In this document: positions 3,311 to 54,919 of the stretch, in pieces | Layout: every line of letters begins with the position of its first letter | Numbering within the stretch: the stretch's first letter is position 1 | From: a virus | Lineage: Duplodnaviria > Caudoviricetes | DNA: 60,801 nucleotides | Direction: 5' to 3' (one strand) | Virus record (IMG/VR): IMGVR_UViG_3300009537_000009 | Coordinates: 1 to 60,801 of that record | The notes under the pieces: generated by a model | What the model saw: the letters and a program-made list of their open reading frames with translations, nothing else | What the model was told of the DNA's origin: nothing | Databases searched by the model: none | Position numbers and translations under genes: made by a program

Positions 3311-3643
3311 ATGAGTACGTGGAAGGCAGTGGAGAGGAGGGTAGCCACTTTTCTCGGCGGGGATAGGGTGCCAATAACAGGGAGAGTAAGAGGGAGTGCT
3401 CCAGATGTGGATCACAAGCACCTATCTATTGAGGTGAAGCATAGAAAGTCCCTTCCCTTATGGCTTGTGGATGCTATGGATCAGGCGGTTAAGAGTATGC
3501 GTGGCGAAAGGATTCCGATTGTTATACTTCATGAGAAGGGTAAGATGATTGGTGATTGTCTGGTGTTGTGTGAGTTAAAAAATTTCAGGGATATATTACA
3601 TGAGTGTGGAAGATATAAGGGCGTTGAGCATACAGGGGATTGA
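3311..3643 (+). CDS. PD-(D/E)xK nuclease, Holliday junction resolvase-like
   Basis: ERRVA...PDV...IEVKHRK motif pattern. Confidence 0.75.
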   Translation: MSTWKAVERRVATFLGGDRVPITGRVRGSAPDVDHKHLSIEVKHRKSLPLWLVDAMDQAVKSMRGERIPIVILHEKGKMIGDCLVLCELKNFRDILHECGRYKGVEHTGD

Positions 3644-13434: not shown

Positions 13435-13908
13435 ATGTATTTTATGGGGAAGGAAGTGGCTAGTAGACCAAATAAGTATAGGAGAGCCTGGAATCAGGCA
13501 ACCATCCCACTGGTAAGAGAGTTGATGGAGAATGGTGGTTCTATCGTGGAGGCATGTAGAATCATGGGAATTAGCAGGGTGACCCACTATCGGTGGATGA
13601 AATGCCCTACAAAAGCAGCATATAGCCGCGCTATGAGTGATCTTCTGGATGCTTCCGAGGCTTGGTGGATGAGGCAGGGGAGAGAGAATGTTGGAAACAG
13701 AAGTTTTAATACCCAGTTATTCAATCTCAATATGGTCAATAGGTTCAAGTGGAACTCTGCCCAATCAGAACAGACGCGGAACGTCTCCGAGAAGAGGAAG
13801 GTTACTGTCGATATTCGTAAAGCTATCGACGAGTCGGAGGAAAAAAATGAGGAGCAACACGGAGAGGTTATTCCTTTGTTGAAGAAAGTAGTTGACAATG
13901 GGGAATAG
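13435..13908 (+). CDS. Terminase small subunit (putative)
   Basis: HTH GGSIVEACRIMGISRVTHYRW, SEAWW..GR, MVNRFKW; first rightward late gene. Confidence 0.75.
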   Translation: MYFMGKEVASRPNKYRRAWNQATIPLVRELMENGGSIVEACRIMGISRVTHYRWMKCPTKAAYSRAMSDLLDASEAWWMRQGRENVGNRSFNTQLFNLNMVNRFKWNSAQSEQTRNVSEKRKVTVDIRKAIDESEEKNEEQHGEVIPLLKKVVDNGE

Positions 13909-13919
13909 TGTGGTATAAT
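13892..13919 (+). promoter_or_regulatory. Consensus sigma70 promoter of the RNA island
   Basis: TTGACA 13892-13897, 16-nt spacer, TGgTATAAT ending 13919. Confidence 0.9.
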
Positions 13920-13926
13920 GGTCCCA

Positions 13927-14047
13927 GGTTGCGTAGTTTAATGGCAAAACACTAAAAACACTATTTCTACCTATTGCTTTCCAAGCCGCTTGAGATGGTT
14001 TATCATTCGCTAAATGAGTGATGCGGGTTCGATTCCCGCCGCAACCG
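13927..14047 (+). ncRNA. tRNA-like RNA with ~70-nt expanded anticodon region; Y RNA (YrlA)-like candidate
   Basis: Acceptor GGTTGCG/CGCAACC, D arm, T arm GCGGG-TTCGATT-CCCGC, no CCA; inner helix ACTATTTC/GAGATGGT and bulged-C helix TGCTT/AAGC(C)G. Confidence 0.65.
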
Positions 14048-14056
14048 ACTTATTAC

Positions 14057-14131
14057 GGGGGATGGGCAGAGCACCCGGAGAATCCTTGCAAGATTCTAGC
14101 CTGATCAGTTTGAGTCTGATACCCTCCACCA
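14057..14131 (+). tRNA. tRNA-Ala(TGC)
   Basis: GAATC-CTTGCAA-GATTC, G3:U70, ACCA end. Confidence 0.85.
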
Positions 14132-14200
14132 GTTTAGCGTCCGAAGTGTGTAGGTTACCACCAAAGATATTGCTTGATACTCCTATGTACGATCACTTGA

Positions 14201-14276
14201 CGCTCTATCGTATAACGGCTATTATTCCGGACTCTTAATCCGTGTGATCCAGGTTCGAATCCTGGTGGGGCGACCA
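14201..14276 (+). tRNA. tRNA-Lys(CTT)
   Basis: CGGA-CTCTTAA-TCCG, TTCGAAT loop, CCA. Confidence 0.9.
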
Positions 14277-14290
14277 ATCATGGAGGAACT

Positions 14291-14572
14291 ATGCAGTACA
14301 GTTTTCTAATACTGCTTATAACATTTTTGATAATGTTAATCATTCTGATAGTGGATGATTGGCGGAAAACACTGCTTATAGAGGAATATAAGGTACTATC
14401 ACGAGTGTGGTCGCAAGAATCCTCACTGCTGGATGAGTACAGAAAGAAGTCGAGGGTATGGTTACATGGCGACTATCCTATTCTCAAGGATAGCGAGGTC
14501 ACCAAGGAAAGGCGAAGGGTTCTGCACAAGATGGCAGAAGATCGCAGGAAAGGAACTCATAATAGAGCGTAG
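14291..14572 (+). CDS. Membrane-anchored hypothetical protein
   Basis: GGAGG RBS, N-terminal hydrophobic helix; stop codon inside tRNA-Cys. Confidence 0.7.
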   Translation: MQYSFLILLITFLIMLIILIVDDWRKTLLIEEYKVLSRVWSQESSLLDEYRKKSRVWLHGDYPILKDSEVTKERRRVLHKMAEDRRKGTHNRA

Positions 14573-14637
14573 AGGTCGATTGGATAAACGGGTGTCTGCA
14601 AAACACTCACAAGCTGGTTCGATTCCAGTCTACGCTT
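14566..14637 (+). tRNA. tRNA-Cys(GCA)
   Basis: GGTGT-CTGCAAA-ACACT, U73; followed by CCG running into next tRNA. Confidence 0.85.
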
Positions 14638-14639
14638 CC

Positions 14640-14713
14640 GGTCTGTTAGTTTAGTGGTAAAACATTGGTCTGTCTAACCTTTGTCAAGGGTTCGATTCCC
14701 TTACAGATCGCCA
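14640..14713 (+). tRNA. tRNA-Asp(GTC)
   Basis: GGT-CTGTCTA-ACC, G73, CCA. Confidence 0.85.
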
Positions 14714-14719
14714 AATTAC

Positions 14720-14807
14720 GGGGGTGCTGGTATGCGCCTTATCAATTCTTGCTCTATTGAGCCGAAGATACAGGCTTATCTTGGTTCGACTCCAAGTACC
14801 CCCTCCT
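14720..14807 (+). tRNA. Atypical tRNA-like gene, undetermined anticodon (9-nt loop, long variable arm)
   Basis: Acceptor GGGGGTG/TACCCCC, T arm CTTGG-TTCGACT-CCAAG, TCAAT-TCTTGCTCT-ATTGA. Confidence 0.6.
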
Positions 14808-14811
14808 ATAT

Positions 14812-14901
14812 GGATTGTGCAAGTAAGTCAGCCTGGGGCTGAGAACGGCTGTAACCCGTTTCCTTATGGGCATGAGGTTCGATTCCTTCCACGATCCACC
14901 A
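14812..14901 (+). tRNA. tRNA-Tyr(GTA), atypical 8-bp acceptor
   Basis: AACGG-CTGTAAC-CCGTT; GGATTGTG/CACGATCC; A73, CCA. Confidence 0.8.
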
Positions 14902-14973
14902 CCCCTTGTGTTGGGGAAACAACCACCACTCCTAATGGGGGTATTACAGGTTCGAATCCTGTCGAGGGGTCCA
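14902..14973 (+). tRNA. tRNA-Arg(CCT)
   Basis: CCA-CTCCTAA-TGG; CCCCTTG/CGAGGGG; CCA. Confidence 0.8.
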
Positions 14974-14975
14974 AT

Positions 14976-15158
14976 ATGGAAAACAATTCAGGGTACGTCA
15001 AGGTTCTTGAAGAGAGGGCGGCAGAAGCCTCCATGTTCAAGAAAGAGTTGGAGTTTTTGAGATTTTTCTATGAAAGGTCGGATTTCAAGATGGCGATCAT
15101 GGAAGAGTATACCGCTCTAGGACACAAGGTTCCCTATGAATATGATGAGCCTAGCTGA
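14976..15158 (+). CDS. Small hypothetical protein (60 aa)
   Basis: ATG 14976; SD-like GAGGGG lies in tRNA-Arg 3' end; stop inside tRNA-Ile. Confidence 0.6.
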   Translation: MENNSGYVKVLEERAAEASMFKKELEFLRFFYERSDFKMAIMEEYTALGHKVPYEYDEPS

Positions 15159-15222
15159 CTGATAGTCAGAGTGCGCCTGATAAGCGTACTGAAGCAAGGT
15201 TTGATTCCTTGAGGCTCAACCA
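15146..15222 (+). tRNA. tRNA-Ile(GAT)
   Basis: TGCGC-CTGATAA-GCGTA; TGAGCCT/AGGCTCA; ACCA. Confidence 0.85.
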
Positions 15223-15223
15223 A

Positions 15224-15300
15224 GCCGTGGTGGTGGAATTGGGATACACGCCAGTCTTAGAAACTGGTTCTTGAGAGTTCGAGTCTCTCCTGCGGTACCA
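15224..15300 (+). tRNA. tRNA-Leu(TAG), short variable arm
   Basis: CCAGT-CTTAGAA-ACTGG; 5-nt variable region; ACCA. Confidence 0.9.
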
Positions 15301-15305
15301 AATTA

Positions 15306-15383
15306 GTGTCCCTGACGGGAATTGGAATACCTGCCGGGCTTAAAACCCGGTGTTTCTCAGTTCGAATCTGAGTGCGAGTACCA
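15306..15383 (+). tRNA. tRNA-Leu(TAA), short variable arm, poorly paired acceptor (possible pseudogene)
   Basis: CCGGG-CTTAAAA-CCCGG and intact T arm; GTGTCCC vs TGCGAGT pair poorly. Confidence 0.65.
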
Positions 15384-15397
15384 TTCATTGGTGATTT

Positions 15398-15781
15398 GTG
15401 AGACATACAAAGAAGGATTTTGAGATAGACTGGTTTTCGGGTAGTGGTGCTGGCGGACAACATAGAAACAAACACCAGAACTGTTGCCGGATTACTCACA
15501 AGCAAACCGGGTTGAGGGCGCAGTCCACGAGTCACAGGGAAAGGTGGAAGAACCAGCGCGACGCATTCAACCGTTTAGCTGGGATGATAATTGCATCTGA
15601 TGATAAAAAGGAAAGAAGGGATTCCAATCATATTGTCAGAACATACAACTATGTTCGGGGCATTGCCACTGACGGGGTTATCGAAAAACCCTTGCATCCC
15701 GTAATAAACGGTGATATAATGGAGTTTATTGTTAACTCCTTATCTGGCAATAGACCAGATAGATTCACGGGCAGAATGTAA
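15398..15781 (+). CDS. Truncated class I peptide chain release factor-like protein (GGQ peptidyl-tRNA hydrolase domain)
   Basis: SGSGAGGQHRNK...CRITHKQTG...VRTYNY...NGDIMEFI, matching the C-terminal half of RF1/RF2. Confidence 0.9.
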   Translation: MRHTKKDFEIDWFSGSGAGGQHRNKHQNCCRITHKQTGLRAQSTSHRERWKNQRDAFNRLAGMIIASDDKKERRDSNHIVRTYNYVRGIATDGVIEKPLHPVINGDIMEFIVNSLSGNRPDRFTGRM

Positions 15782-15785
15782 CAAT

Positions 15786-15861
15786 GTATGCATAGCTTAA
15801 CCGGCAAAGCCCAAGGATGTGACCCTTGAAGATTCAGGTTCGAAGCCTGATGTATACCCCA
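15786..15861 (+). tRNA. tRNA-His(GTG), no encoded G-1
   Basis: CAAGG-ATGTGAC-CCTTG; C73; base -1 is T. Confidence 0.85.
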
Positions 15862-15862
15862 A

Positions 15863-15938
15863 GCAGTCTAGGCCGATCCGGCGATGGTTCTAGTCTTCCA
15901 AACTAGTGAGGTGGGTTCGACTCCCACAGGCTGCTCCA
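15863..15938 (+). tRNA. tRNA-Gly(TCC)
   Basis: CTAGT-CTTCCAA-ACTAG; U73, CCA. Confidence 0.9.
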
Positions 15939-15942
15939 ATTT

Positions 15943-16013
15943 CCCCCTGCTAATGGATAGAGGCAGGTCTTCTAAACCGGTCCTTGTGGGTTCGAATCCC
16001 TCCTGGGGGTCCA
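15943..16013 (+). tRNA. tRNA-Arg(TCT)
   Basis: GGT-CTTCTAA-ACC; compact D arm; CCA. Confidence 0.75.
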
Positions 16014-16028
16014 TATACAGAGAAAAGA

Positions 16029-16718
16029 ATGGGATTACTAATACCGCCATCTGATGATCCAATGGATACTCAGTGGACTGACTACGAAGCATATATTCCG
16101 TGGTGGAAGGATACTCCTCCCATGGCGAGACATGGCCTCATTACAGGGGAAACACCCAAACATATAGGGCTTGGTTTCAGGAAAACCAACGATCCGAGTG
16201 AACCCTATGTTGAGAGGCTTTTGAATATTCGTGGATTAAATACAGACGGAACCTCGCCCCGTTTTATTGCGGAGGATAATGAGAGTCTGGCAAAGTTCGG
16301 AGCAACAACCCGAATCGAACCCGATAACGCATATGTGATAGGGTCTGCGTATAAAGAAGGTGAGACATATATGCACGAAGCGGCTCATTTTTTTTCGGGG
16401 GACGACAAGGTGGTCGAGAGATTGGAAGATATCGGGATGACCACTACCAAGGCCAAGTCGGGGGAAACGCTGTACAAATGGCCCGGAAAGGATGTATTCA
16501 TACCCGAAGCAGATACAGAACATATGTTGATTGATCTGGAAACTTTTCTCAGAAATGACAATACCCAAAACGCTATGCAAGCTTTTGAAAGGCTTATTGA
16601 ACTTTCCGGTAAACACGACATCAAACTATCGAAAGTGGTGGATGTGTACCACGACATAGTGGGCCTTCTATATGAGATATATCCGGACCTAAAAGAATTG
16701 TCGATGGATGGCCGGTAG
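16029..16718 (+). CDS. Hypothetical protein with HExxH motif
   Basis: MHEAAHF; probable start 16029; stop inside tRNA-Ile(TAT). Confidence 0.7.
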   Translation: MGLLIPPSDDPMDTQWTDYEAYIPWWKDTPPMARHGLITGETPKHIGLGFRKTNDPSEPYVERLLNIRGLNTDGTSPRFIAEDNESLAKFGATTRIEPDNAYVIGSAYKEGETYMHEAAHFFSGDDKVVERLEDIGMTTTKAKSGETLYKWPGKDVFIPEADTEHMLIDLETFLRNDNTQNAMQAFERLIELSGKHDIKLSKVVDVYHDIVGLLYEIYPDLKELSMDGR

Positions 16719-16775
16719 TCATAAGGCAGCTTATATCTGTCTTGGAGCAGGGTTCAACTCCCTGATCGACGACCA
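16699..16775 (+). tRNA. tRNA-Ile(TAT)
   Basis: GGCAG-CTTATAT-CTGTC; TGTCGAT/ATCGACG; ACCA. Confidence 0.85.
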
Positions 16776-16790
16776 TATGTGGAGAGGACG

Positions 16791-16949
16791 ATGAAAGAAC
16801 TGATACAAGAGAGTGAGGAGGGGTTGAGATTCGTACCCCTCGAAGATTTGCTTGAGGCCCTTCATATGCTTAGAGATGACTTCATGCAAATGAAACGCGG
16901 GTACCATGTTACCATAGAGAAATGGATCAAGGAGCTTGATGATGTCTGA
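16791..16949 (+). CDS. Small hypothetical protein (52 aa)
   Basis: GGAGAGG RBS, MKELIQESEEG... Confidence 0.55.
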   Translation: MKELIQESEEGLRFVPLEDLLEALHMLRDDFMQMKRGYHVTIEKWIKELDDV

Positions 16950-17154
16950 GAGGCCACCTGTACTTTGTGGTATCGATGGGGTGTATCATCCCGCTTTTTA
17001 CCGATGTAATCAATTTCGGTTTCGGGGATACGGGATTACGATGATATGTTGCGCCGTATGCAAGGAAGGCTCCCATATCGAGGATGATACAGAAAACTCA
17101 GCTCGTAGGCCGGATATCGAGGCGGCATTCTTACAAAATGCCAGTAGAGGGTGA
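16942..17154 (+). CDS. Small Cys-rich protein
   Basis: AGGAG RBS; CCAVC; 3' end overlaps tRNA-Val. Confidence 0.5.
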   Translation: MSERPPVLCGIDGVYHPAFYRCNQFRFRGYGITMICCAVCKEGSHIEDDTENSARRPDIEAAFLQNASRG

Positions 17155-17174
17155 GATTCCTTCACGAGCTACCA
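17100..17174 (+). tRNA. tRNA-Val(TAC)
   Basis: GCATT-CTTACAA-AATGC; AGCTCGT/ACGAGCT; atypical T loop TGAGATT. Confidence 0.85.
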
Positions 17175-17180
17175 AATAAT

Positions 17181-17259
17181 GGGGATGAGATGGCTCGACC
17201 GATCTTAAAACCTTACGGAAAGGATCGGGACCAGGGATCAAAACCCTGCATCTCCACCA
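17181..17259 (+). ncRNA. Minimal tmRNA-like RNA: tRNA-like domain only, no mRNA-like domain
   Basis: GGGGATG/CATCTCC with G3:U70 and A73-CCA; stemless D loop AGATGGCTCGA; 8-bp P2-like CCGATCTT/AGGATCGG; GAC then CAGGG-ATCAAAA-CCCTG. Confidence 0.8.
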
Positions 17260-17264
17260 TATTT

Positions 17265-17336
17265 TCCCTGTCTGCGGACTCAGTGTGACGGCTACGAACC
17301 GAAATCAGGTCAGTTCAACTCTGGCACAGGGAACCA
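17265..17336 (+). tRNA. tRNA-Arg(ACG)
   Basis: CGG-CTACGAA-CCG; TCCCTGT/ACAGGGA; ACCA. Confidence 0.8.
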
Positions 17337-17337
17337 A

Positions 17338-17411
17338 AGGCCGATAGTTCAACGGCAGAACACTGGGCTTTGAACCCGGTAGTCCTGGTTCGAATCCAGG
17401 TTGGCCTTCCA
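17338..17411 (+). tRNA. tRNA-Gln(TTG)
   Basis: CTGGG-CTTTGAA-CCCGG; canonical arms. Confidence 0.92.
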
Positions 17412-17417
17412 TACATA

Positions 17418-17504
17418 GCTGGCTTGGCAGAGCGGACGAATGCAGGGGTTTTGTAAGCCTCAGTCGAAAGACCATCGTGGGTTCGAATCCTACAGTTAGC
17501 TCCA
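17418..17504 (+). tRNA. tRNA-Thr(TGT) with long variable arm
   Basis: GGGGT-TTTGTAA-GCCTC; GTC-GAAA-GAC arm; G1-C72, C2-G71. Confidence 0.8.
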
Positions 17505-17518
17505 ACCTGAGAGAGAAG

Positions 17519-18166
17519 ATGAGAAAGGGAATATTACTTGTAGTGTTTTTGCTGGGTGGTTGCGGTGTGATGACCGATCAGGGCAGGGTGTCCAAAGAGG
17601 TTTATCGGGCCGAAACGGCACAAAAGCTGTTCGACTCCGCCCAAAAAGCTGATGATGCTTTCGCAAAGGAAAACCCCGTGAGCGGAGTACCGTCATACTG
17701 TAACGGTTCTGTAACAGATGCCCAAGCCGTGGTTTGCGGGATGGCTCAAGCGAACGCTAATCTCTCAGTAGCCCTTGTAAACGCAAACAGGAAAGCCTCT
17801 GTCGCTTATGCTTCACAGATTCTATCTACACAGGCACAAGAAAGAATTGCATTCAAGGACCGTCTGATGAATTTCTTCGGTATCGTGTATTCGACCGAGA
17901 GGGGCTCAAGGAGCCGTTCTACGGGTGATGGGACCAGGGTGGTCATCAATGGGCCAAACGCCCGAGGTAGCGGAGAAGGAGGGGCTTCTGCTGGCAGTCA
18001 GGACGTAAGCCTGAATATCGGTAATGCAAATCAGGTATCTTCGGATGGAAGGACTGGTTTTGCCAACAGGAATAGTACGGTTGACAACCACGACCAATCC
18101 GAGGTTGTGTTCGAACCTGTCCTCGAACCGGTGGTTGACATACCCGAACTACCTGTGATAGAATAA
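17519..18166 (+). CDS. Lipoprotein
   Basis: MRKGILLVVFLLGGC lipobox; probable start 17519. Confidence 0.75.
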   Translation: MRKGILLVVFLLGGCGVMTDQGRVSKEVYRAETAQKLFDSAQKADDAFAKENPVSGVPSYCNGSVTDAQAVVCGMAQANANLSVALVNANRKASVAYASQILSTQAQERIAFKDRLMNFFGIVYSTERGSRSRSTGDGTRVVINGPNARGSGEGGASAGSQDVSLNIGNANQVSSDGRTGFANRNSTVDNHDQSEVVFEPVLEPVVDIPELPVIE

Positions 18167-18173
18167 AGAGTTT

Positions 18174-18248
18174 GGACTTCTGGTGTAGGTGGCCGCACGA
18201 CAGTTTGAAGCACTGTAGGATCAGGCTCGATTCCTGGGGGGTCCACCA
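18174..18248 (+). tRNA. tRNA-Phe(GAA)
   Basis: ACAGT-TTGAAGC-ACTGT; ACCA. Confidence 0.85.
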
Positions 18249-18250
18249 AA

Positions 18251-18325
18251 GCACCGTAAGGCGAATGGCGAGCCAGTAGTCCTTCAAACTATTGTGAGTG
18301 GGTTCGATCCCCACACGGTGTACCA
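18251..18325 (+). tRNA. tRNA-Glu(TTC), C at position 33
   Basis: GTAGT-CCTTCAA-ACTAT; GCACCGT/ACGGTGT; ACCA. Confidence 0.75.
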
Positions 18326-18326
18326 C

Positions 18327-18404
18327 TGTGGGATAGCAATCCGGGTGATCGCAGACGGCTGTTAACCGTCAAGGAGATGAGTTCGAGTCTCATTCCCACA
18401 GCCA
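18327..18404 (+). tRNA. tRNA-Asn(GTT)
   Basis: GACGG-CTGTTAA-CCGTC; G73, CCA. Confidence 0.9.
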
Positions 18405-18409
18405 TTTCA

Positions 18410-18494
18410 GGAAGGTAGGGTGCTGGGCACAAAAACGGTTTGAACCCGTTCCCACTCTTTGGGGTGATCGTTCGATTCGGATTACCTTCCGCCA
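18410..18494 (+). tRNA. tRNA-Ser(TGA), 8/4-type fold
   Basis: AACGG-TTTGAAC-CCGTT; GGAAGGTA/TACCTTCC; long variable arm; G73. Confidence 0.85.
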
Positions 18495-18495
18495 C

Positions 18496-18581
18496 AGTAG
18501 GTTGAGTGCTGGGCACACGACAGTTTGCTAAACTGCCCCACTCCGAAGGGGGTGACAGTTCGATTCTGTAACCTACTGCCA
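18496..18581 (+). tRNA. tRNA-Ser(GCT), 8/4 fold
   Basis: AGTAGGTT/AACCTACT 8 bp, T stem ACAG/CTGT 4 bp; loop TTGCTAA; G73. Confidence 0.85.
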
Positions 18582-18584
18582 TAT

Positions 18585-18659
18585 CAGAGACGACGAGGCT
18601 GGGTCATCTCCGTCCCTTGGAAGGACTGAAGCGCAGTTCGATTCTGCGGTCTCTGACCA
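18585..18659 (+). tRNA. tRNA-Pro(TGG)
   Basis: GTCC-CTTGGAA-GGAC; C1-G72, A73. Confidence 0.85.
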
Positions 18660-18660
18660 G

Positions 18661-18735
18661 AGGGGTGAAACATTTAAGGTGATGTCTCGGTCTTTTAAAC
18701 CGGAAAACAGGGTTCAAGTCCCTGCGCCCCCACCA
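18661..18735 (+). tRNA. tRNA-Lys(TTT)
   Basis: TCGGT-CTTTTAA-ACCGG; ACCA. Confidence 0.85.
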
Positions 18736-18739
18736 GTCA

Positions 18740-18748
18740 TGGTATAAT
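18740..18748 (+). promoter_or_regulatory. Extended -10 promoter
   Basis: TGGTATAAT immediately upstream of the large structured region. Confidence 0.65.
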
Positions 18749-18752
18749 AGAG

Positions 18753-19139
18753 ATAGGCACTCCCTGCCTTAAAATTATGAGCGGCTCACCGTCCGTGTCG
18801 GGAAGAAAAGCGGTTTTAATGAGCGGGTCTTTGACCTCGGACCAGTCCTCCAGAGCGCAAGCAAGTTAGGCGGGGGGCGATAAACAGGGCTATACTGTAA
18901 CACAGTCAGTGACTACGACCAGCTTCGGCTGCTTGGCCTTACGGCCTTGAAGGTAGTGCAGCGTCTCGCGGTACGATAACACGCACCTGATATACGCTCA
19001 CCTTGTGACGGTAACTAGACAACCATAAAGAGTATTCTCTCCCTGTGGTGGAATTCTCGGATCATATGCTGGACTAATATCCCGGCCTATAAACCCCGAC
19101 CAGTCTGGTTACAGTGAAGGAGGTCCGAGCTATGCCTAT
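18753..19139 (+). ncRNA. Large structured non-coding RNA, unclassified (~385 nt)
   Basis: No long ORF; nested long-range helices 18753-59/19133-39, 18836-43/19122-29, 18894-901/19108-15; cUUCGg hairpin 18920-18931. Confidence 0.7.
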
Positions 19140-19170
19140 TTGTGTTGTATTTTTACAACAGGGGGAGTTG

Positions 19171-19353
19171 ATGCAGTGTAAGTGCGGTGGAAGCACGGTT
19201 GACCGTGTGTCTGTCCGAAAGAAGGGGAAGTACAAACTTCTCTATGTCCATTGTGTCGAGTGTACCAGGGTAGGTAATTGGTTGTACCTTGAAGATAACA
19301 AGTTGGCTGCCTCCGGTGAGGATGCCAGAAAGAAATATAGCGCGGTGGTGTAA
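19171..19353 (+). CDS. Small zinc-ribbon protein
   Basis: GGGAG RBS; MQCKCGG...CVEC; stop inside tRNA-Met. Confidence 0.65.
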   Translation: MQCKCGGSTVDRVSVRKKGKYKLLYVHCVECTRVGNWLYLEDNKLAASGEDARKKYSAVV

Positions 19354-19413
19354 AGGCTAACATCTTGGACTCATATTCCTCGGCTGAGAGTTCGATTCTC
19401 TCCTGCGCTACCA
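19339..19413 (+). tRNA. tRNA-Met(CAT) (elongator Met or Ile2 not resolved)
   Basis: GGA-CTCATAT-TCC; AGCGCGG/CTGCGCT; ACCA. Confidence 0.8.
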
Positions 19414-19414
19414 T

Positions 19415-19491
19415 GAGCCGTCATGTTCCAAGGCTGGCGATGAAGTCTCCAAAACTCTATGTGTGGGGTTCGATTCCCTAGCGGCTCGCCA
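19415..19491 (+). tRNA. tRNA-Trp(CCA)
   Basis: AGT-CTCCAAA-ACT; G73, CCA. Confidence 0.8.
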
Positions 19492-53254: not shown

Positions 53255-54796
53255 TTAACCCTTTATAAAATCAGATATCACGGCAGGGACTCCCGCATCA
53301 AACCCGACTACATCCATTGCGCCGCCATCCTCCGGATCAGCAATCGTGAATCCCGTAGAGGTCATACCAACCACCACCAACTTGGCGTGGATTCCCATGG
53401 CCGAACGGTATCTTCGTAGCGCCTCCATCGGCTTCATTTTCCCCGCCCATGTTTCATTGTCAGTGTAGACAATGAAGGCATCGTAAGACTTCTTCTCTAG
53501 AAGAGCAACTTGCATCGGAAGAGAACAGTCGGTTGCACCGAACGGTAGTCCATGCACCGCCTTCATAGCTGCATTCAGATTCCACCCACGAGCAATAGGC
53601 AGCTTTGTGATGCTATTACAGAACCCATACACATCCGCACAGTCCTCTACATTCACCGTAACCAGGCTCATGGCGGTAGCAGCCATTCTGACAGACATGG
53701 AACCATTGAACGGAAGCCCCATTGACCCCGATACATCGAGACCAATCATGATACGCTTCCCTGTTGGTTCAACATTCACAAATGCATCATGAAAGGCGTT
53801 ATTGAGCGCGCCCACAATAAGAGCAGAGGAGTTACCCTCCTTCTTATACTCGCTCATTGCAATCAAGACAGACATCGGATGCACCATTGAACCACGGATG
53901 CCCCTCAGCTTCTGCACTACTAGCTCTTCGCACTCACGATTGAAGACACCGTAGTTGCTCATGTTGCGCAGATTACGGATCATTGCAGTCATCGGCATGT
54001 TGGGTAGCATGGCCCTCCACACACCCGCATCCTTCAACACCTCGGTTGACAAATACTCTCTTGGGGTGTGATGGTTTTGCACGAGAAAGTCCACCACCTT
54101 CTCGGGATTGGTCTCGTTGCGGATAGATTCGTATGTGTGAACAGCCTGTGGTGCCTGTGGAGTCACCTTGCCGCCAACCGCCCAACCAAACAACGCATTA
54201 TGTTTTTCGCTGACCGGCTTAACATGGGCGAGGCGCAGTACATCTCTATGCGTCCATCCCTCACGGTTCCGGTACTTGGTCATGCCGAAAGCAAGAGCAT
54301 GTATGTCACGCGAGTACCACTCCCCCACAACCTTACGAATAAGACTGCCCCACTTTCCACCCAACTGCTTGCGGTACTGTAGGAACATGAATAAGTGAGT
54401 AGGAATACGGCAGATATCACCCAGCCTGGAAAGAGCCAAACTCCTAACAGCTACCCTTTTATCCACTGAGGCAACAGCCAGCGCGAATATTTGTGGGTCT
54501 ACCTTGTGGGCCAGTCCGTTTACGTTGACATCCACTATAATGTCGATTGCTCTCTCTGCGTCTGACCTGAGAGCAGTCAAGATGGCCTCATAATTGCCAG
54601 CCACCATCTCCCGCTTCGAGACGTAGAATGTCGCCCCGTCCGCGCCGAGAATAAGAAACCTTCTCAGGCGATCAAATTCATTCAGCCCATAAACAAACCC
54701 ACCCGCGTTGTTCATGACTTCTCGTGGGTCGGAGCGCACCGTTTGTGGCGTCACCCGATGACGATCAATTGCGTAATTCTGCATTTTGCTACTCAT
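53255..54796 (-). CDS. rsr: Ro60 (TROVE + vWA) RNA-binding protein
   Basis: NNAGGF, RLRRFLILG, KYRNREGWTHRDVLRLAH, MP.TA.IRNL, MIDAS DVSGSM, YTDNETW, GFTIADP.D..MDVVGFD. Confidence 0.95.
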   Translation of the reverse strand: MSSKMQNYAIDRHRVTPQTVRSDPREVMNNAGGFVYGLNEFDRLRRFLILGADGATFYVSKREMVAGNYEAILTALRSDAERAIDIIVDVNVNGLAHKVDPQIFALAVASVDKRVAVRSLALSRLGDICRIPTHLFMFLQYRKQLGGKWGSLIRKVVGEWYSRDIHALAFGMTKYRNREGWTHRDVLRLAHVKPVSEKHNALFGWAVGGKVTPQAPQAVHTYESIRNETNPEKVVDFLVQNHHTPREYLSTEVLKDAGVWRAMLPNMPMTAMIRNLRNMSNYGVFNRECEELVVQKLRGIRGSMVHPMSVLIAMSEYKKEGNSSALIVGALNNAFHDAFVNVEPTGKRIMIGLDVSGSMGLPFNGSMSVRMAATAMSLVTVNVEDCADVYGFCNSITKLPIARGWNLNAAMKAVHGLPFGATDCSLPMQVALLEKKSYDAFIVYTDNETWAGKMKPMEALRRYRSAMGIHAKLVVVGMTSTGFTIADPEDGGAMDVVGFDAGVPAVISDFIKG

Positions 54797-54919
54797 GTGA
54801 ATTAAAGGGTTGTAATGTCAAGGTGCGTGAATGGAGTGTACTCAAACACAAGGTTGATAATCCACTCACATCGGACATTACGAAACGTATTATACATCGA
54901 ATCCATGGCGGTGTCAAGC

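Follow-up and report, generated by a model that had tools for sequence, protein, structure and literature searches.

The tRNA island of a tailed phage opens with a small RNA that has the shape of a transfer RNA (tRNA) and carries, on an extra arm, a candidate docking site for the ring protein Ro60. The phage genome is the 60,801-base virus record IMGVR_UViG_3300009537_000009 (Caudoviricetes), analysed over its whole length and referred to here as the window; the RNA occupies positions 13927-14047, and a Ro60 gene is encoded elsewhere in the same genome. The element is probably a non-coding Y-type RNA built on an intact tRNA frame, with Ro60 docked on the tip of the arm and the tRNA body serving as a handle. 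Homologues with the same architecture are found in other phages and in bacteria, where they are closely associated with Ro60 genes. Judged by sequence and predicted pairing, they represent a tRNA-shaped layout of bacterial and phage Y RNAs that standard annotation files as a tRNA. The features of the window that bear on this RNA are collected in Table 1.

Table 1. Position and description of the RNA, its parts, and the associated genes and promoters in the window
Feature	Position	Strand	Description
Y-RNA-like tRNA mimic, non-permuted (tRNA topology)	13927-14047	+	121 nt; CCA not encoded; RF00005, model R1
Acceptor stem	13927-13933/14040-14046	+	discriminator G14047; RF00005, minimum free energy (MFE) fold, R1
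D arm	13936-13950	+	stem 13936-39/13947-50; GG in loop; RF00005, R1
Inserted arm	13960-13999	+	proximal helix 13960-67/13992-99 (MFE) encloses distal Ro-type hairpin
Distal hairpin	13975-13988	+	U13975-G13988, G13976-C13986, C13977-G13985, U13978-A13984, U13979-A13983; loop UCC 13980-82; bulged C13987
GGUUUAUC	13997-14004	+	family GGUUAYC motif plus one extra U; model alignments
Anticodon-arm remnant	14003-14017	+	UCAUU-CGCUA-AAUGA; alternative register with 7-nt loop UCGCUAA
Variable loop	14018-14022	+	GUGAU; kept in L050, L055, L056 and L057 copies
T arm	14023-14039	+	GCGGG-UUCGAUU-CCCGC; RF00005, R1; stem letters equal the Rfam YrlA consensus
Sigma-70 promoter	13892-13919	+	TTGACA-16-(TG)TATAAT; 12/12 match with TG extension; +1 predicted at 13926/13927
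tRNA-Ala(UGC)-like gene	14060-14131	+	CCA encoded; homologue in Microcystis phage Mwe-JY26 annotated tRNA-Ala
Short Y-RNA-like RNA	14136-14204	+	helix GCGUC-C-GA.../...UUGACGC, then GGUUACC; between tRNA-Ala-like gene and tRNA-Lys
Phage Ro60 gene	53255-54796	-	513 aa; Pfam vWA_Ro60 E 1.7e-59, TROVE E 7.3e-28; phrog_850
Short Y RNA	54812-54882	-	helix GUAAUGUC-C-GA.../...UUGACAUUAC; begins at predicted +1; ends 16 bases before Ro60 start codon
Sigma-70 promoter before short Y RNA and Ro60	54889-54917	-	12/12 match

The tRNA frame is matched from end to end by the Rfam tRNA model RF00005 (model positions 1-71, 48 bits against a gathering score of 29), with a 63-base insertion at the anticodon arm. 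Downstream of the discriminator the bases are ACU and not CCA. An earlier note on this DNA, made from the letters alone, had described acceptor, D and T arms without CCA, together with a helix at 13960-67/13992-99, a distal helix with a bulged C and a UCC cap, and a hairpin at 14003-14017; all of these parts were recovered. The MFE fold reproduces the acceptor stem, the T arm, the proximal helix of the arm, the small UCC-capped hairpin and the 3' hairpin. It does not draw the D stem in its canonical register, which is taken from the Rfam alignment. The fold of the whole RNA has a z-score of -3.15 (2 of 200 shuffles as good), that of the insert alone only -1.87. A covariance model, R1, was built from seven similar RNAs with the window excluded. 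When the window copy is aligned to it, 13960-64 pair with 13995-99 and all 26 modelled pairs are formed. The distal helix, including the bulged C13987, is recovered identically by this model from other genomes. The start of the RNA had been placed at the expected transcription start, and the promoter agrees with it to within a base. Perfect copies of TTGACA-N16-18-TATAAT occur only four times in the 60.8-kb genome; two are divergent at 762-803, and the remaining two (13892-13919 and 54889-54917) each stand in front of a Y-type RNA.

The earlier note also held that the anticodon arm had been replaced. An extra arm is indeed present at that place, and the hairpin that follows it is a remnant of the anticodon arm, so that the Ro-type arm has been inserted between the D stem and this hairpin and does not replace the anticodon arm. 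The hairpin is identified as a remnant because, in 27 aligned family members (a set that includes no unpublished genomes), the hairpin between GGUUAYC and GUGAU has a 7-base loop in 20, and in 12 the loop reads CU-NNN-AA. The window loop, CGCUA or UCGCUAA, falls outside this signature. If the insert were removed or tolerated, the loop of the 14003-17 remnant might still read a codon (GCU or UAA, depending on the register), and the RNA would be an arm- or intron-bearing tRNA active in decoding. The full match to the tRNA model and the CU-NNN-AA loops of the relatives would suit such a tRNA, and the RNA of locus L055 encodes CCA, but we regard decoding as very improbable. The family register places a C where U33 belongs, the stem-loop has 15 and not 17 bases, and a 50-base insert precedes it. 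ARAGORN makes no call on the element, which lacks the CCA encoded by 19 of the 21 phage tRNAs that the program does call, and a regular tRNA-Ser(GCU) is already present at 18496-18581. In addition, no hairpin with a 7-nt loop was found in 7 of the 27 members, and where the hairpin is present its 'anticodon' varies among tandem copies. We know of no bacterial splicing system for an insert between positions 26 and 27. Two other identities were considered and rejected. Group I introns are far longer than the insert, which is too short to be one. A small tmRNA (transfer-messenger RNA) was set aside as well; only the T arm matches tmRNA models, the 3-70 pair is U-A instead of G-U, and a convincing tag frame is lacking.

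RNAs of the same layout are found in phage tRNA islands and in bacteria. A metagenome scan for a D arm and T loop 55-85 bases apart yielded 7 loci, 5 of them distinct, and a scan for the 3' module (UUAUC, 12-14 bases, GUGAU, T loop) yielded two viral and three bacterial loci. Among the latter, L055, L056 and L057 have the layout of the window element; L058 and L059, whose matches fall within coding sequence, appear fortuitous. The RNAs of L050, L055, L056 and several of the L057 copies align with the window element over its full length. With R1, the window element scores 80.6 bits (E 2.9e-18); the best ordinary tRNAs reach 40.6 bits in the window and 54.8 bits across 34 sources. Searches with the exact 20-mer of the D arm and with a D-arm...UUCUAC pattern returned mostly ordinary tRNAs, and only locus L003 was informative. 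The inverted arrangement that had been proposed for this RNA, with the Ro stem closed by a loop and the acceptor ends free, is thus shared by its homologues and, as described next, kept by covarying helices.

The covariation figures lean towards structure, because the alignments were fitted to R1 and many of their rows are related or tandem copies: in a 12-sequence alignment, 97.9% of the cells are paired, with compensatory changes at 20 of 26 pairs, and in the 27-sequence alignment the values are 98.4% and 21 of 26. None of 500 shuffles reaches these levels in either alignment. When the partners in the 27 sequences were slid by 1-3 columns as a control, 33-51% of the cells paired. Compensatory changes are seen in all 7 acceptor pairs, and in 4 of 5 pairs in both the proximal and the distal helix of the inserted arm.

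The tip of the arm shows the strongest resemblance to known Y RNAs. The distal U-G pair is found in 24 of the 27 members (C-G in the other 3). In an 8-sequence alignment (A4) the bulged C and the G after it never vary, and they are present in every row of alignment A7. The window has CCGC in place of the CCGA of several members; some members that adjoin Ro60 genes likewise have CCGC, CCGU or CCGG. Directly 3' of the proximal helix the family carries GGUUAYC, where the window reads GGUUUAUC, with one U too many. This motif is common to two short Y RNAs of the phage and to the Rfam Y_RNA and stem-bulge RNA (sbRNA) consensus lines, both of which hold GUCCG and GGGUUAUC. According to the available text of PMC4201824, Ro60 contacts GGUCCGA of Y RNAs, a sequence that can pair into a bulged helix. 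The bulged-C/U-G helix with GGUUAYC would appear to be the module by which Y RNAs dock Ro60, except that a loop closes it here and the acceptor ends are left free.

In bacteria the family accompanies Ro60 genes. The sample consisted of 151 genomes of the class that holds L057, searched with R1 at E<=1e-12. R1 matches were found in 17 genomes, the TROVE domain in 26 and both in 16, for a Fisher p of 5e-14 that overstates independence because the sampled genomes are related. Leaving out the unpublished genomes G017, G041 and G104 reduces these to 14, 23 and 13 of 148 (p 1e-11). In 12 of the 13 published genomes with both, the TROVE match is preceded on its own strand by the nearest R1 match, at a distance of 156-1430 bases; in G004, the genome of L057, a six-copy array is convergent with Ro60. 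The description of the element as a Y-RNA-like tRNA mimic is in this way upheld at the level of the family. Among viruses, both the window and a 24-kb record that holds L055 encode Ro60; in the L055 record the gene and the RNA are about 17 kb apart. In the examined stretches of the metagenome contigs, tblastn found no Ro60, and Ro60 matches occur in only 366 of 50,697 phage records. An RNA-repair cassette beside the Ro60 gene of the window was also considered; it is not claimed because the neighbour labelled 'nucleotide kinase' by PHROG is a DUF3310 protein by Pfam.

A second type of RNA was met in the metagenome loci. At L048:2558-2674, L051:593-711, L049:1806-1925 (-) and L054:958-1074, the same D arm and T loop enclose other inserts of 45-50 bases that lack the Ro module. 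R1 scores those of L048 and L051 at 65 and 58 bits, yet they are without the arm helices. A hairpin covaries between these two (UAUCCU/AGGAUA in L048, UAUCUA/UAGAUA in L051). Such RNAs may be further families of arm-bearing tRNA mimics. Those of L048/L052/L053, L051, L049 and L054 were left out of alignment A7 for their different inserts and the missing Ro module.

RNAs of this second type also bear on a role for the window element that does not involve Ro60. It might act as a tRNA decoy for anticodon nucleases or for modification and processing enzymes, or as an organiser of the processing of the island transcript, its arm having some other partner. Its position at the head of the 22-tRNA island and its intact elbow would suit that role, as would the existence of RNAs that share the D arm and T loop and carry different inserts with no Ro module. 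We consider it unlikely, since the bulged-C/U-G helix and GGUUAYC of the family are found at the homologous place in the arm, Ro60 genes accompany the family in 16 of 17 genomes, and a Ro60 gene is present in the phage as well.

The Y RNAs with a tRNA-like domain known so far are all circularly permuted tRNAs whose acceptor stem is closed, and the role of the tRNA half has been an open question. These RNAs, the YrlAs, are Ro60-bound tRNA mimics for which an origin from dimeric tRNA transcripts has been proposed (available text of Chen et al. 2014, PMC4201824, and of Wang et al. 2018, bioRxiv 10.1101/312249, the source of a structure). They are known from S. Typhimurium, many bacteria and mycobacteriophages, and their Rfam model, RF02553, has a gathering score of 69 bits. 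The element of the window resembles YrlA in that the D/T elbow is joined to a Ro60-type stem on the anticodon side, and the T stem, GCGGG/CCCGC, is the same. It differs in its order (acceptor, D, arm, hairpin, T, acceptor), its open acceptor ends, its loop-closed Ro-type stem and the anticodon-like hairpin that it has kept. Most of the bacterial homologues, but not the window element, are also encoded within about 4 kb of Ro60 on the same strand, as is expected of a YrlA. In five bacterial genomes with R1 matches beside Ro60, RF02553 exceeded its cut-off in none (best 35.2 bits). Among the permuted RNAs is that at L003:2459-2560, a canonical YrlA of a phage, directly upstream of Ro60 (RF02553 30.9 bits, E 6e-5, below the gathering score). 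Its D-arm 20-mer is identical to 13934-13953 of the window, the strand after the D arm is similar, and a similar UUAUC-hairpin-GU(G/U)AU module precedes its T arm.

Other known RNAs share single traits with the element. For example, the YrlA of M. smegmatis is opened by RNase P and receives CCA (PMC4201824, available text). This Ro60-bound RNA likewise has a free tRNA-like acceptor end, reached by cutting the closed loop, which leaves an RNA in two pieces, whereas here a one-piece RNA is encoded open. Yrn1 of D. radiodurans, a Y RNA, also has T- and D-like elements in an order unlike that of YrlA; as far as the available text of PMC4201824 describes it, a stem-loop between the arms takes the place of the anticodon and the likeness to tRNA is partial, in contrast to the Ro-type stem of the window element, which is added as an arm to a full tRNA frame. 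Animal Y RNAs (RF00019) and nematode stem-bulge RNAs (RF01656) likewise have a bulged-C helix followed by a G-U pair, and GGUUAUC-like letters. In animal Y RNAs, however, the terminal stem GGUCCGA/UUGACC is formed from the RNA ends, while the window helix, AAGC-C-G/U-GCUU, is loop-closed, 4 bp long and mounted on a tRNA body. Thermus phage phiLo also encodes both a Ro60 and its own Y RNAs, Yrl1 and Yrl2. The available part of PMC12135203 presents these as stem-bulge-stem RNAs upstream of the Ro60 gene and mentions no tRNA frame; it reports that the phage Ro60 binds the phage Y RNAs and host PNPase in vitro, and the PNPase binding suggests a model for the effector. One-piece and permuted two-piece tmRNAs (RF00023, RF04321) show one kind of RNA in two permuted layouts, an analogy only, as the function is unrelated. 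No description of a non-permuted tRNA-like Y RNA was found in the literature, although the supplements of Chen et al. 2014 may list such RNAs.

Phage Y RNAs of other designs were seen upstream of Ro60 genes. At L012:7390-8230 there is an array of about five Y-RNA-like units (5' GGGUCGG...GGUUAYC, 3' UUUUACUC) upstream of a phage Ro60, and beside it, at L012:6933-7027, a 95-base tRNA whose anticodon loop, CUCUAAA, is of the amber-suppressor type. The Y RNA at L009:1820-1965, again upstream of a phage Ro60, holds a complete non-permuted cloverleaf (RF00005 41.9 bits, model 4-67) inside a terminal GGGUCGG...GGUUAUCC stem and is a third layout.

Several observations weigh against the proposed Y-RNA reading of the window element. 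Some concern the match to known Y RNAs: RF02553 gives no match to the unpermuted element at E<=10 in 13850-14210, nor at E<=5 anywhere in the window, and the Rfam Y_RNA and sbRNA models give none to 13927-14047. The motif GNCGAAN0-1G, as given in the available text of PMC4201824, is not present in full; the GCCGCUUG of the window keeps the G, C and G but not the AA. The likeness of the two flanks to the L003 YrlA is modest, since 39 and 103 of 2000 shuffles score as high. Other points concern Ro60 itself. A 42-kb fragment with L056 has no TROVE match. In the examined stretches of five Ro60-encoding viral loci (L009-L013) no family member was found, and these loci carry other forms of Y RNA. 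The window RNA, unlike the bacterial members, is on the strand opposite Ro60 and 20-39 kb away from it. The earlier note had put this distance at about 20 kb on the circle; that value presumes a circular map, and the record, rated 100% complete, is classed as having linear ends. The remaining points are the lean of the covariation figures, the more canonical sites of the two short Y RNAs, and the state of the window copy.

The last of these could mean that the copy is decaying: a family member by descent that has lost Ro60 binding and passed its job to the two short Y RNAs. Its R1 score lies below that of every training sequence (80.6 against 104-122 bits), GGUUAYC is broken by the extra U, the distal helix is weak and A-U-rich with only 4 pairs before the loop, CCGC stands in place of the CCGA of several members, and the anticodon-like loop departs from CU-NNN-AA. 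Even so, decay seems improbable for an RNA that sits exactly at one of the four perfect promoters of the genome and forms 26 of 26 modelled pairs, and CCGC itself, like CCGU and CCGG, occurs in members beside Ro60 genes.

The two short Y RNAs have a GUCCGA...UUGAC helix, a more canonical Ro60 site than that of the tRNA-shaped element, which for this reason is not the sole candidate partner of the phage protein. In a 201-base search the RNA at 54812-54882 matched sbRNA RF01656 with 27.8 bits (E 5e-4) and Y_RNA RF00019 with 24.7 bits (E 0.0038), both below the gathering score; the corresponding E-values for the whole window are 0.15 and 1.1. Its fold has a z-score of -2.92, a value reached by none of 200 shuffles. 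It forms the Ro60 leader and may act either as an RNA of its own or as a site of autoregulation. The RNA at 14136-14204 aligns with it as a paralogue. Its own Y_RNA score, 14.8 bits (E 2.6), is not significant, and its fold is no better than those of shuffles. Its helix runs, on the 3' strand, three bases into tRNA-Lys (14201) and would thus be trimmed by an RNase P cut. A pattern search for further short Y RNAs of this kind found nothing. By analogy with the bacterial pairs of YrlA and YrlB, the tRNA-shaped RNA can be regarded as one of up to three candidate Ro60 partners.

If the tRNA-shaped element is a Ro60-docking RNA as proposed, it would be the first product of the tRNA-island transcript, starting at the acceptor stem or one base before it. 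Cutting by RNase P at the 5' end of the gene at 14060 would define its 3' trailer, and the RNA would be released by ordinary tRNA processing. The predicted fold is that of an L-shaped tRNA, complete with acceptor, D and T arms but with the anticodon hairpin reduced to a vestige; the arm of about 40 bases would project from this body between the D stem and that hairpin. At the tip of the arm would be the 4-bp helix that holds the bulged C and the U-G pair, and after it GGUUAYC. The ring of the phage Ro60 would bind there, to strands joined by a loop instead of being the ends of the RNA. The tRNA-like body may protect the RNA and recruit a host factor that recognises tRNA or an exoribonuclease such as PNPase, and the targets of the resulting ribonucleoprotein (RNP) during infection would be structured or damaged RNAs.

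More speculatively, the layout may be the ancestral form of tRNA-like Y RNAs, a tRNA with a Ro60-docking arm, from which the permuted YrlAs arose through tandem copies. We hold this only as a doubtful extension, in which the RNA would be matured like a tRNA, given CCA, and charged or bound by EF-Tu or another tRNA factor, tethering Ro60 to the machinery of translation or tRNA repair; free acceptor ends are what would permit such maturation, CCA addition, charging or EF-Tu binding. On this scheme a permuted YrlA would join the 3' half of one copy to the 5' half of the copy that follows. A hint of such an origin comes from L057, where a weak RF02553 match (3361-3476, 30.5 bits) extends across the junction of two adjacent copies, as a tandem-copy origin predicts. 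The locus belongs to a Chloroflexia metagenome-assembled genome and has six tandem tRNA-topology Y-type RNAs (L057:2095-3903, -) and Ro60 at L057:361-1920 (+). A permuted tRNA-like RNA was also observed at L050:532-661 (-), with an RF02553 score of 32.8 bits (below the cut-off), on the same 4.3-kb contig as a member with tRNA topology, and one phage may thus carry both layouts.

With a family in natural topology, the published proposal of a tRNA ancestry for Y RNAs takes a concrete shape. Such a family also makes testable the use of tRNA maturation, CCA addition and even charging by Ro60 RNPs. For annotation, the consequence is that Ro60 partners can hide inside tRNA arrays, where Rfam scores them as tRNA and the YrlA model misses them. 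A compact phage with Ro60 and three Y-type RNAs also offers a system for the study of phage Ro60 action.

The surroundings of the RNA in the phage genome were examined as well. No relative of the helix-turn-helix (HTH) open reading frame (ORF) upstream of the element was found in viral contigs. A terminase search for close phage relatives turned up no more than a 4-kb fragment and a contig of 44% identity that lacks tRNAs, and a search of a phage collection with the region gave tRNA-sized matches only. In the small share of public sequencing runs that was compared, contigs covered the tRNA-Ala-like and tRNA-Lys genes but no part of 13927-14047 or 14136-14200, a result without bearing on expression. 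One match, in Mwe-JY26, appeared to run into the T arm; it is an ordinary tRNA spanning the ends of that record.

The tRNA calls of ARAGORN span 14201-19413, and the island holds some unusual genes in addition. The tRNA-Ala-like gene that follows the element was missed both by ARAGORN and by Rfam (E<=10); it has the G3-U70 pair, a D loop without GG and the T loop UUUGAGU. An odd ARAGORN call at 14720-14806 (+), an 87-base 'tRNA-Asn (att)', is without CCA. Directly after tRNA-Leu(UAG), positions 15317-15372 (+) give a partial RF00005 match (30.6 bits, model 10-63) with the loop CUUAAAA and no ARAGORN call. A weak match to the tRNA-Sec model (30.9 bits) lies at 19414-19488 (+), directly after tRNA-Met. 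The island also includes an ORF at 15398-15781 (+) with an RF-1 domain, that is, the release-factor/ArfB-like peptidyl-tRNA hydrolase fold.

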